From assembly GCA_005191425.1 (NCBI GenBank), contig SUPR01000002.1:30001-62000 (forward strand): DNA of 32,000 nucleotides, written 5' to 3'. The notes under the pieces are model-generated. The model was not told the DNA's origin, did not search any database, and worked only from the letters and a program-made list of their open reading frames with translations. The stretch is from Candidatus Helarchaeota ASGARD archaeon Hel_GB_B. GTDB taxonomy: Archaea > Asgardarchaeota > Lokiarchaeia > Helarchaeales > HEL-GB-B. The position numbers and the translations under genes are program-made. Below are positions 6,652 through 29,337 of the stretch, in pieces. Within the stretch, counting starts at the first letter, position 1. The number at the start of each line of letters is the position of its first letter.

Positions 6652-6782
6652 TGGACCGGCCGGGAATTTCGTCTAAGTCCACAAAGAAATCCAAACGAAT
6701 TTCATTTTTTTAGAGGACTAAATTTCGAACCCGGGGCCTCCAGATTGCAAGTCTGACGATCTACCAACTGATCTACCGGCCC
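6652..6782 (-). tRNA. tRNA-Ala(UGC) with a 58-nt intron in the T-loop (59/60)
   Basis: Minus strand reads GGGCCGG-TA-GATC-AGTTGGTA-GATC-G-TCAGA-CTTGCAA-TCTGG-AGGCC-CCGGG-TTCGAA[intron]T-CCCGG-CCGGTCC-A. The G3:U70 Ala identity pair is present and the mature length is 73 nt. Confidence 0.97.
6666..6723 (-). other. Archaeal BHB intron in tRNA-Ala, position 59/60
   Basis: T-stem CCGGG/CCCGG; central helix UUCG/CGAA; bulges AA^A and AU^U; intron stem UUUAGUCC/GGACUUAGA; inner hairpin GAAAUUC/GGAUUUC. Confidence 0.93.
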
Positions 6783-7022
6783 TTTTTCTATTTTTCAATT
6801 AAAATGTTAAAACATTAATCTAATTCATTTATATTACTAAAAGTTTTTAAGTTTTTACATTATAAAAATTTTTTGTTATTATTTTAGATGATAATTACTA
6901 TAATTTACAAAAAATGAAATTAAATAAATAAAAAAAGATTTTGATATATTGAAAACCAAATCTGAAATAATTTCCACAAAAATTTTTAGATATAGCTCAT
7001 TATTAAAATTGGTGCCTATCAA

Positions 7023-9365
7023 ATGAAAATCGGTGTTTTTATTTGTCATTGCGGTACTAATATCGCTGGAGTAGTTGATATAGATAGAGTTAAAGAAGAA
7101 TTAATGGGTTATCCCGATATAGTTATTTTTGATAATCCATATATTTGTTCCAAAACAGGTCTTTTAGATTTAAAAGAGAAAATTAAACAACATCAATTAG
7201 ACCGTATTGTAATAGCTGCATGTTCTCCTAAAATGCATGGTAATTTATTTCAAGACTTATTAAATGAAATTGGAATTAATCGGTTTCTTCTAGAAATAGC
7301 AAATATCCGCGAACAAGATTCGTGGGTTCATCATAGTCATCCTGAAGCTGCTACAATTAAAGCAATTGATATTATTAAAATGGCTGTTGAAAAAGTTAAA
7401 AAATTAGAGCCATTAAAAAGAATCAAAATACAAACAGAGAACCAAGCTCTTGTAATTGGTGGAGGAATAGCTGGGATAACTGCATCCTTAAAATTAGCAA
7501 ATTTGGGAATTAAAGTATATTTAGTTGAGAAGAGTCCAAGTATCGGCGGACATATGGCAGAATATGATAAAACTTTCCCAACAATGGACTGCGCCATTTG
7601 TATATTAGCTCCCCTTATGAGTGAAGTCTCTACAAACCCAAGAATTGAAGTCCTCGATTATTCTGAAGTTGTCGAGGTAAAAGGTCAAGTGGGTAATTTT
7701 GAAGTTACTGTTGAAAAAAAGCCTAGATTTATCGACCCGACCAAATGTATATCTGGTTGTATAGAAGACTGTAGTTCTAATTGTCCTATAGAAATTCCTA
7801 ATGTCTTTAATAGATTTGGTACAAACAAGGCTATTTATATTTCATTTCCGCAAGCAGTACCATTAATGGCAGCTATTGATAACAATTATTGTATTGGTTG
7901 TAGGAGCTGTCAGACATTTTGTAAAAGAGAAGCTATTAATTTTTATCAAGAACCCGAGCAAATTAAAATAAAAGTGGGAGTAATTATTGCTGCCATTGGG
8001 TTTGAGCCATACGACCCAACTCCACTCGAAGAATATGGATATTCAAGGTACAAAAATGTTATCACTTCTATTGAATTAGAGCGAATCCTATCACCTTTTG
8101 GCCCAACTAAAGGTAAATTATTGAGGCCTTCGGATGGGAAACCTATTAAGAGAGTTGCATTTATACAGTGTGTAGGAAGCAGAAATGAACAAATTGGACG
8201 ATTACATTGTTCTGGCGTGTGTTGTATGTCTACTATTAAAGAATCTATTCAAATAAAAACAAGAATTCCTGATGCAAATATATCTGTTTTTTATATTGAT
8301 ATCCGGACATATGGAAAAGGTTTTGAAGAATTTTACGAAAATTCACAAGTCAAATATAATATAAATTATATAAGAGGTAGAGTTGCTGAAATTTACGAAG
8401 ACCCAACCACTCAAAATTTAATCCTTAGAGCAGAAGACACAAATTTATGCTCTTTAGTTGAGCTTGAATTTGACTTGGTCGTCCTAGCTATTGGAATAGA
8501 CCCTCCAAAAGATATTGATAAATTGACTAACATACTAAATATTTCAAAATCATCAGATGGTTTTTTTCAAGCAAGACACCCAAAACTAAGGCCGGAAGAG
8601 TCGACTCTTCAAGGTGTATATTTAGCAGGATGTGCACATGGACCTAAAAATATTCATGAAACTGTTATTCATGCAAAAGCAGCGGCGGTTGAATCTGCGT
8701 CCATTATTCAAAAAGGAGAAATAATGATCGATCCAATTGCCTCTAAAATTGACTATGAAAAATGTATTAATTGTAAATTATGCATGAAAGTCTGTGATTC
8801 TAAAGCTATTCGGGAAATAGATAAGAAAATTGTTATTAATGAAGCCAATTGCCTTGGTTGTGGTGCATGTGCAGCTGCATGTCCAACTGGTGCATTAAAC
8901 ATCCCCAATTTTACTAATGAACAAATAATATCCCAAATTTCTGCATTAAAAAAGAGTGATTATCCCTATATTGTAGGTTTTTTCTGCAACTGGTGTGCCT
9001 ATAATGCAGCCGATTTAGCAGGGGTTATGAGAGTAGAATATCCACCAAACCTTAGAATTGTTCGCGTGATGTGCGCCAGTATGGTAAGTCCTAAATATAT
9101 AATTGAAGCATTTCAGAATGGTGCAGACGGTGTTTTGGTCGTTGGTTGTTATGAAAATGATTGTCATTATCGTACTGGATTTACAAAAGCATTACATCGA
9201 ATAAAAATTATGAAAGAAATGTTGAACCAATTTGGTATTAATAATAAAAGACTAAAGATCGACAGTGCCAGCGCAAGTGAAGGAATAAAAATTAAGGAGA
9301 TAGTAGAGAATTTTATTAATGAAATAAAAGATTTAGGGCCGATAGGCACTGAAATTATAAAATGA
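7023..9365 (+). CDS. hdrA: Heterodisulfide reductase subunit A fused to a C-terminal MvhD domain
   Basis: MKIGVFICHCGTNI start, ALVIGGGIAG FAD motif, DKTFPTMDCAICI, FIQCVGSR, ferredoxin motifs, then an MvhD-type GFFCNWCAY..RVMC..ADGVLVVGC..DCHY domain. Confidence 0.95.
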   Translation: MKIGVFICHCGTNIAGVVDIDRVKEELMGYPDIVIFDNPYICSKTGLLDLKEKIKQHQLDRIVIAACSPKMHGNLFQDLLNEIGINRFLLEIANIREQDSWVHHSHPEAATIKAIDIIKMAVEKVKKLEPLKRIKIQTENQALVIGGGIAGITASLKLANLGIKVYLVEKSPSIGGHMAEYDKTFPTMDCAICILAPLMSEVSTNPRIEVLDYSEVVEVKGQVGNFEVTVEKKPRFIDPTKCISGCIEDCSSNCPIEIPNVFNRFGTNKAIYISFPQAVPLMAAIDNNYCIGCRSCQTFCKREAINFYQEPEQIKIKVGVIIAAIGFEPYDPTPLEEYGYSRYKNVITSIELERILSPFGPTKGKLLRPSDGKPIKRVAFIQCVGSRNEQIGRLHCSGVCCMSTIKESIQIKTRIPDANISVFYIDIRTYGKGFEEFYENSQVKYNINYIRGRVAEIYEDPTTQNLILRAEDTNLCSLVELEFDLVVLAIGIDPPKDIDKLTNILNISKSSDGFFQARHPKLRPEESTLQGVYLAGCAHGPKNIHETVIHAKAAAVESASIIQKGEIMIDPIASKIDYEKCINCKLCMKVCDSKAIREIDKKIVINEANCLGCGACAAACPTGALNIPNFTNEQIISQISALKKSDYPYIVGFFCNWCAYNAADLAGVMRVEYPPNLRIVRVMCASMVSPKYIIEAFQNGADGVLVVGCYENDCHYRTGFTKALHRIKIMKEMLNQFGINNKRLKIDSASASEGIKIKEIVENFINEIKDLGPIGTEIIK

Positions 9366-28454: not shown

Positions 28455-29235
28455 GTGATCACTGCCACCCTTTATTTTAATTTTTTTTGATCTATAATAT
28501 GTTTAAAATTTTAATAATTTTAATATTTACTTTTTTATACATTTAAAACTTTTTTAAAGACATAATGTTGTCTAAATAATTTAAATTAAATTTATTTCAC
28601 GATTTTTCAAATTTTTATAAATAAAAATTCATTAAGTCCATTCAAAATAAAACCAAAAAAACTCCTTTTTAATATTATTTTAGAATAGATTACTATTTGT
28701 TATATTTTAATATTGGAATTGATTTTTTAAATTCATTTTGAGATTTTCAATCAATAATAGCTATACTCATTCTCATTTTTAAAGTTTTTTTCCATTTATG
28801 TTTTTCATTGTTATTTCAAAACCAATTAATTTTAATAAATACAATTAGAAATATAATCAATTTGGTCAATAATAACATATAAAATAATCTATTACAAATC
28901 AAAAAAGTTCTTTTTTAGATAATCTTGGAATTAAAATGATATATTGTAAAAAAGTTTGTTCTAAAATATGATATTTTTTGAAAAATAAATTTTAAAATAT
29001 AAAAATCTATTAAATATATTAAAACTATTATGTATCTGCTACATTTTTAAGGATCTATGATCAAATGTTTTTAATTTTAATTGAATAAATTATAAAATCT
29101 ATAAAAATAGGTAATTTTTAGTAATGATTTTCTAGAATTTAATAGTTTGAAATAAAAAAATTTAAGAATTTGTTTTTTAAAATAAAATATACTATTAAAA
29201 TTGATTGATACGTCAAAATTATAAAAAGTTTTATA

Positions 29236-29337
29236 GGGCCGGTGATCTAGAAGCAATATATCGGCAATATTATTGGAAATCGGTATGATATCGCCCTCAC
29301 GCGGCGAAAATCGTGGGTTCAATTCCCACCCGGCCCA
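29236..29337 (+). tRNA. tRNA-Val(CAC) with a ~28-nt intron in the D-loop
   Basis: GGGCCGG-TG-ATCT-AGA[intron]TCGGTA-TGAT-A-TCGCC-CTCACGC-GGCGA-AAATC-GTGGG-TTCAATT-CCCAC-CCGGCCC-A; mature length 74 nt. Confidence 0.95.
29252..29279 (+). other. Non-canonical D-loop intron (about 16/17) with a relaxed BHB/BHL motif
   Basis: Central helix UCUA/UGGA, bulges GA^A and AA^U, intron stem AAUAU/AUAUU. The outer helix is poor and exact junctions are uncertain by 1-2 nt. Confidence 0.75.

Follow-up and report, generated by a model that had tools for sequence, protein, structure and literature searches.

The stretch of DNA analysed here (hereafter referred to as the window) comprises 32,000 nucleotides (nt), corresponding to positions 30001-62000 of contig C107 in a 3.54-Mb assembly from the Helarchaeales (Lokiarchaeia, Asgard archaea), which consists of 182 contigs with a GC content of 28%. 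It contains genes for HdrA, Cdc48, TruD, Hef, a presenilin homolog and a beta-CASP nuclease, a pair of genes for the small (rfcS) and large (rfcL) subunits of replication factor C (RFC), and two tRNA genes, tRNA-Ala(UGC) and tRNA-Val(CAC). The rfcS gene and both tRNA genes are interrupted by short inserts, the boundaries of which can be folded into a strict or relaxed bulge-helix-bulge (BHB) motif. An earlier note on this DNA had claimed an insert of this type in a protein gene, together with introns in the T-loop and the D-loop of the two tRNA genes, and all three are present.

The interrupted rfcS gene

The rfcS gene and the elements of its predicted intron are arranged as follows.

18369..18502, minus strand: rfcS exon 1, from Met1 (ATG at 18502) through the second base of the codon for the Ile of GPPGI
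18342..18368, minus strand: rfcS BHB intron of 27 nt, within the Walker A codons, with an in-frame TGA at 18367..18365
17441..18341, minus strand: rfcS exon 2, from the last base of the Ile codon through GKTS to the stop codon at 17443..17441, matching Pfam AAA and Rep_fac_C
18338..18377, minus strand: rfcS BHB core, read from the sequence and confirmed by script
18377..18375/18340..18338, 18374..18371/18347..18344 and 18367..18363/18352..18348, minus strand: outer, central and inner helices of the rfcS BHB, respectively
18370..18368 and 18343..18341, minus strand: the two bulges of the rfcS BHB
16169..17425, minus strand: rfcL (RFC large subunit), directly downstream from rfcS and in the same orientation, matching Pfam AAA, Rad17 and RFC lid

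Read without splicing, the frame runs LLLYGPPGI*NVGYFHPKGKTS, such that the unspliced mRNA encodes a fragment of at most 51 residues; gene callers give rfcS as an open reading frame (ORF) of 291 amino acids with a TTG start. The insert lies in a strict BHB (hBHBh′), with a 3-base pair (bp) outer helix (UCC:GGA), the central helix GGGA:UCCU, a 5-bp inner helix (UGAAA:UUUCA) and the bulges AUU and AAA, and the central and inner helices are drawn alike by RNAfold. For this and every other predicted splice, the cut was placed between the second and third bases of each 3-nt bulge. Removal of the 27 nt by these canonical cuts yields an in-frame GPPGIGKTS, and the Walker A motif is intact only in this spliced form. 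The product has the features of an RFC small subunit, with an AAA+ module including the Walker A motif and the RFC C-terminal domain. By itself, the motif does not exceed chance expectation, strict BHBs occurring at a rate of about 1.2e-4 per site and length, and the case for an intron in rfcS therefore rests on the functional fit of its boundaries and on its conservation in relatives.

Among named records, those closest to the rfcS of the window are from Candidatus Helarchaeota LW55_61 and Hel_GB_A. The order is represented by seven genomes in the collection, and the relatives compared were G001 (same genus), G004 (Hel_GB_A), G005 and G006. At the identical nucleotide, the rfcS orthologs have inserts of 24 nt (G001), 25 nt (G004) and 33 nt (G006), and all four inserts, including that of the window, fold as a BHB and splice to GPPG[I/T]GKTS. 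Their interiors are unrelated in sequence, with inner helices of 5, 7, 5 and 9 bp. The third pair of the outer helix is U-A, C-G or U.G across the four related sequences, through synonymous codons for Pro (CCU/CCC) and Gly (GGA/GGG); at the level of sequence, this codon pair is one that changes compensatorily. The insert is absent from the G005 ortholog (family f3); the motif search in G003, from the same family, returned only the neighbouring rfcL. A further 77 archaeal rfcS genes, taken from metagenomes, have an uninterrupted P-loop, and a metagenome scan for further orthologs yielded nothing beyond a copy of the Hel_GB_A sequence. The intron-free ortholog in G005 has the P-loop GPPGSGKMS, in which Met replaces the Walker A Thr; the intron-bearing copies have GKTS.

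One alternative is that the rfcS paralog is a pseudogene undergoing decay, or an artefact of assembly, with a coincidental BHB-like fold. It is a divergent paralog, with a second rfcS present on contig C131; strict BHBs are common by chance across the genome, and the fold in rfcS is not unusually stable. However, exon 2 is open for 299 codons in a genome with a GC content of 28%, in which random frames extend for about 12 codons on average, and the gene is located in an rfcS-rfcL operon. Both exons are intact, with the insert at the identical nucleotide, in four separate assemblies, and the insert is also present in a DNA contig of an independent public run, which covers the intron without gaps (the contigs of runs X1, X3 and X4 do not reach it). 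The comparison with relatives excludes assembly error, and we consider decay or artefact to be a very improbable explanation overall.

Alternatively, the break might be passed at the ribosome, by decoding of the UGA as selenocysteine or another residue, or by bypassing of the type seen in phage T4 gene 60, from one GGA to the other. The genome apparently makes use of selenocysteine, with in-frame TGA codons in HdrA-like genes, and the rfcS insert is bracketed by GGA codons with a stop codon and a hairpin between them. Nevertheless, read-through would add nine residues to the P-loop, and hopping would yield GPPGKTS, without the Walker A spacing. The 25-nt insert of Hel_GB_A breaks the frame, and the stop codons of the other copies differ (TGA in this genome, two TGA in G001 and TAA in G006), which excludes stop-codon recoding. 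Likewise, the flanking codons in G004 and G006 (GGU and GGG) provide no match for hopping, which the comparison with relatives renders implausible. Passage of the break during translation is, thus, scarcely conceivable.

Several other genes of the assembly have in-frame stop codons of their own. Two HdrA-like genes (contig C122, at about 7250, and contig C26, at about 49739) contain an in-frame TGA in the context DDC(S/A)I*IL, which fits a putative selenocysteine. A strongly conserved gene on the minus strand of C122 (at about 27657; 674 bits to G005) has an in-frame TAG aligned with a Lys in G005, and ARAGORN calls a tRNA with a CUA anticodon (“tRNA-Pyl”) on contig C76; the two together may reflect recoding with pyrrolysine or another residue.

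tRNA introns and splicing enzymes

The two tRNA genes of the window and their inserts are as follows.

6652..6782, minus strand: tRNA-Ala(UGC) gene (exon 1, 6782..6724; intron, 6723..6666; exon 2, 6665..6652)
6666..6723, minus strand: T-loop intron (59/60) of 58 nt, a strict hBHBh′ with the T stem as the outer helix
29236..29337, plus strand: tRNA-Val(CAC) gene, with an Rfam match of 28.7 bits, slightly below the threshold and with one arm unmatched, and found by a T-arm/acceptor scan
29252..29279, plus strand: D-loop intron (16/17) of 28 nt, a relaxed BHB

No tRNA was called by ARAGORN in the window as it stands. The tRNA-Ala gene, with a UGC anticodon and a G3:U70 pair, was matched by Rfam at 31.7 bits, above the threshold, with the T arm left out. 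Its BHB has the highest score in the region (33), with the T stem as a 5-bp outer helix, a central helix UUCG:CGAA, the bulges AAA and AUU, and a 5-bp inner helix. Following the in-silico removal of the 58 nt, ARAGORN calls a 73-nt tRNA-Ala(UGC). In G005, a tRNA-Ala(CGC) gene (contig C5, about 118960-119140, minus strand) contains an insert of about 28 nt at the junction of the variable region and the T stem, a position different from the T-loop site of the tRNA-Ala(UGC) in the window.

For tRNA-Val, a single register provides a 4-bp central helix (UCUA:UGGA) with two 3-nt bulges (GAA and AAU). With the outer helix missing and a break in the inner one, this is a relaxed motif outside the strict hBHBh′ definition. 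The spliced product was accepted by ARAGORN, but dozens of alternative deletions were accepted too, and ARAGORN was therefore dropped as a judge of the splice register in this gene. At the identical D-loop site, an insert is also present in the G005 ortholog, with an identical central helix and a different inner helix. In G001, both tRNA genes are syntenic with those of the window, and the DNA matches end in or near the inserts. The gene for tRNA-Val is adjoined by a presenilin/signal-peptide-peptidase homolog (29551-30468, minus strand; Pfam Presenilin, 68 bits).

Across the whole genome, ARAGORN with intron search called only 16 tRNAs, 10 of them with introns, and a scan for an intact T arm with a matching acceptor stem identified 17 loci, 13 of which are over-long (89-164 nt). 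Most of the tRNA genes of this genome are, thus, interrupted.

The earlier note had associated introns at such sites with broad-specificity heteromeric EndA types and had proposed a permissive splicing endonuclease, and the genes found are of the kind expected. A profile search with PF01974 identified two EndA genes, on contigs C36 (98.6 bits) and C98 (75.1 bits). The C36 protein (alpha; 192 amino acids) has the catalytic triad Tyr-His-Lys, and its alignment to the catalytic subunit of Aeropyrum pernix (3P1Z_B; E 2.5e-42) is free of gaps, including in the lineage-specific loop region; its alignment to the M. jannaschii enzyme (1A79), which does not have this stretch, begins only past that region. 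We take the gap-free stretch to be the L1, or Crenarchaea-specific, loop, an identification based on PMC5829648 and on work on A. pernix. In the C98 protein (beta; 198 amino acids), the catalytic His is replaced, as judged from the alignment to 1A79. The sequences of the two genes match a predicted two-subunit (alpha-beta)2 type with an L1 loop, and an enzyme of this type has already been assigned to Asgard archaea (PMC5829648). As in the (alpha-beta)2 EndA of A. pernix (3P1Z/3AJV), there are two genes, with a catalytic alpha subunit aligned without gaps over the loop and a non-catalytic beta subunit. One difference is that the beta subunit is less similar to its crenarchaeal counterparts than to the EndA of M. 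jannaschii and M. kandleri. The search for rtcB, suggested along with that for EndA, recovered a full-length RtcB on contig C105 (PF01139, 568.5 bits, model positions 1-426).

These genes and motifs point to a single process. A two-subunit alpha/beta EndA with a Crenarchaea-type loop would cut the BHB introns and RtcB would rejoin the ends. In the window, the substrates would be tRNA-Ala, cut in the T-loop, tRNA-Val, cut in the D-loop, and the rfcS transcript, cut within the Walker A codons; joining of the two rfcS exons would delete 27 nt, including the UGA, and restore GPPGIGKTS. We infer cleavage and ligation from the motifs, the in-silico restoration of products, conservation with compensatory change and the presence of the enzyme genes. 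Four points weigh against this interpretation. The tRNA-Val motif without an outer helix and the rfcS intron of G001, which has one A/G mismatch in the central helix, would both require a permissive enzyme; the single-sequence fold of rfcS is no stabler than those of shuffled sequences (z about 0); and the four intron-bearing rfcS orthologs are related and, hence, not independent observations. On balance, it is highly probable that, in this Helarchaeales genome, most pre-tRNAs and a small number of pre-mRNAs are freed of BHB introns by EndA and RtcB.

Predicted introns in other protein genes

Three further protein genes of the assembly are interrupted by a BHB-flanked break.

Contig C131, 8417..8446: a second rfcS (hereafter referred to as rfcS-2, the gene of the window being rfcS-1), with a 30-nt BHB intron, spliced to EKYRPR|TLSE
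Contig C29, 819..783: dnaG, with a 37-nt BHB intron, the outer helix of which has only 2 bp, spliced to IEVDGIVE|RPDVVGA
Contig C38, 4963..4933: an acyl-CoA dehydrogenase gene, with a 31-nt BHB intron, spliced to DAKMAE|IYEGTSEIQ

The introns of the two rfcS paralogs are located at different codons. The prediction that more hidden spliced mRNAs would be found is supported in part, by these three candidates, and the absence of any other BHB-flanked break from protein genes, part of what the earlier note named as refuting it, does not hold. Its suggestion of a spread of BHB introns into mRNAs genome-wide finds no support in two screens by homology or in a scan for the motif with decoys as a control.

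In the scan, strict BHBs (hBHBh′; helices of 3+4+3 bp, intron of 13-200 nt) were compared with wrong-handed decoys used as a control, with 162,829 matches for the former and 162,371 for the latter genome-wide. Strict BHBs joining ORFs displayed no excess over decoys at any filter applied (ORF joining, distance from the start codon or codon-usage score). Motif-first discovery of mRNA introns was dropped, the candidate lists consisting mostly of gene boundaries, with no enrichment over decoys.

The first homology screen was performed with tblastn, the queries being ORFs from the part of G005 that served as reference (2.78 Mb, 48%); for 1160 of them, the best high-scoring segment pair (HSP) reached 90 bits or more. 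The hits were examined for stop codons within insertions, for collinear HSPs next to each other and for ends shifted to a different frame. Introns were detected only in rfcS-1, rfcS-2 and the acyl-CoA dehydrogenase gene, and the other events were two plain frameshifts and differences in HdrA/MvhD fusion. The second screen, of paralogs within the genome (1272 ORFs), revealed no additional intron. Both screens missed dnaG, and lineage-specific genes escape screens of this type.

The mRNA introns might nevertheless be widespread, numbering dozens or more, and remain mostly undetected due to relaxed motifs or to their location in poorly conserved genes. Two of the real cases, dnaG with its 2-bp outer helix and rfcS in G001 with its central mismatch, required relaxed criteria for their recognition, and the homology screens were confined to conserved or multi-copy genes, with a reference covering less than half of G005 and with dnaG recovered by neither screen. 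However, the 1160 G005-anchored and 1272 paralog-anchored ORFs yielded only the three genes named above, the remainder being fusions and the two frameshifts, and ORF-joining strict BHBs were no commoner than wrong-handed decoys at any threshold. The cbf5 gene also argues against widespread mRNA introns. The earlier note had associated an intron in this gene with lineages that have a permissive EndA, but here it is uninterrupted, with a TruB_N match on contig C99 within a 333-codon frame without internal stops. Widespread mRNA introns are, therefore, unlikely. The BHB introns in coding sequences appear to be real but rare in this genome, with four confirmed in 3.5 Mb (of the order of 0.1-0.3% of genes); a few more intron-bearing protein genes are likely.

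Some of the breaks encountered have other explanations. A 27-nt candidate in a repeat protein gene (contig C26, at about 794) was rejected, as a frame difference in the repeat array provides a better fit. In the window (7023-9365) and in G005, HdrA forms a fusion with an MvhD-like domain at the C terminus. On C26 (at about 41940) and C122 (at about 19300), HdrA and the MvhD-like part are encoded by two adjacent genes, a split that mimics a broken gene in homology screens; these “breaks” were discarded, as they reflect gene fission versus fusion rather than introns. The conserved genes on contigs C83 (at about 17207) and C164 (at about 4611) have plain frameshifts, with no insert and no BHB; one starts MYDVIISGAGLAGS. 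A repeated element on contig C13 (8021-9665) contains three overlapping ORFs, the frames of which differ between copies (C7, C74, C117 and C131), and resembles an insertion sequence, the ORFs of which are frameshifted.

Of the four protein genes with introns, three (the two RFC small-subunit paralogs and dnaG) encode replication-fork proteins, and the introns cut essential motifs. Splicing by EndA and RtcB might conceivably act as a regulated gate, making production of the clamp loader and of DnaG dependent on RNA-processing capacity, an idea that we consider unlikely. If it were true, a relative of eukaryotes would have a step of mRNA splicing that is regulated and independent of the spliceosome. 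A neutral alternative is that, at a GC content of 28%, few sites are rich enough in GC to form a BHB, with Gly/Pro-rich motifs among them. For annotation, gene callers show the intron-bearing genes as truncated genes or pseudogenes. The screens limit mRNA introns to a handful of genes, rather than the proteome.

Relation to known splicing systems

The tRNA-intron load of Asgard archaea has already been reported (PMC11291895, bioRxiv 10.64898/2026.10.13.758758). The tRNA introns described here resemble those published in their D-loop and T-loop positions, their BHB or relaxed BHB boundaries and their being missed by standard tRNA finders. The passages searched do not name the Helarchaeales and do not mention introns in protein genes, whereas protein genes are affected here too.

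For protein genes, the closest precedent is cbf5 of Crenarchaeota, the pre-mRNA of which contains a BHB intron, with splicing demonstrated experimentally (Watanabe et al. 2002; Yoshinari et al. 2006; Yokobori et al. 2009; cited in PMC5829648 and PMC7714728). According to PMC7714728, which adds an intron in a 5′ untranslated region (UTR) in Haloferax, crenarchaeal cbf5 was the sole earlier case of an mRNA BHB intron. The introns predicted here are similar to that of cbf5, being short tRNA-type BHB introns in coding sequence, associated with a putative heteromeric broad-specificity EndA, the removal of which would restore a conserved protein. They differ in their hosts (two rfcS paralogs, dnaG and an acyl-CoA dehydrogenase gene, with cbf5 itself uninterrupted), in their lineage (Asgard archaea) and in the presence of several such genes per genome; splicing is deduced here, whereas it was established experimentally in Crenarchaeota. 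As for HVO_1309 of Haloferax volcanii, an mRNA is predicted to serve as a substrate of the tRNA-splicing endonuclease, but the HVO_1309 intron lies in the 5′ UTR and is handled by a homodimeric alpha′2 enzyme, whereas the introns here interrupt the reading frame (PMC7714728). In the literature outside subscription journals, a search pairing bulge-helix-bulge with replication factor C returned nothing relevant.

In animals, XBP1 mRNA is ligated by an RtcB-family enzyme after cleavage by the nuclease IRE1 at a motif of paired stem-loops, in a stress-regulated process. The proposed splicing would resemble that of HAC1/XBP1 in being a spliceosome-independent cut-and-ligate process acting on mRNA, and a possible parallel had been drawn in the earlier note; RtcB-type ligation would be common to this genome and to animals, but the nuclease (EndA rather than IRE1) and the motif (a BHB rather than paired stem-loops) are different, making the parallel an analogy only. 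The mechanism is, thus, a known one, and what is new is its several host genes in an Asgard lineage. In the literature searched, these genes would widen the reach of tRNA-type splicing in coding sequences beyond crenarchaeal cbf5, in the archaeal group closest to eukaryotes.

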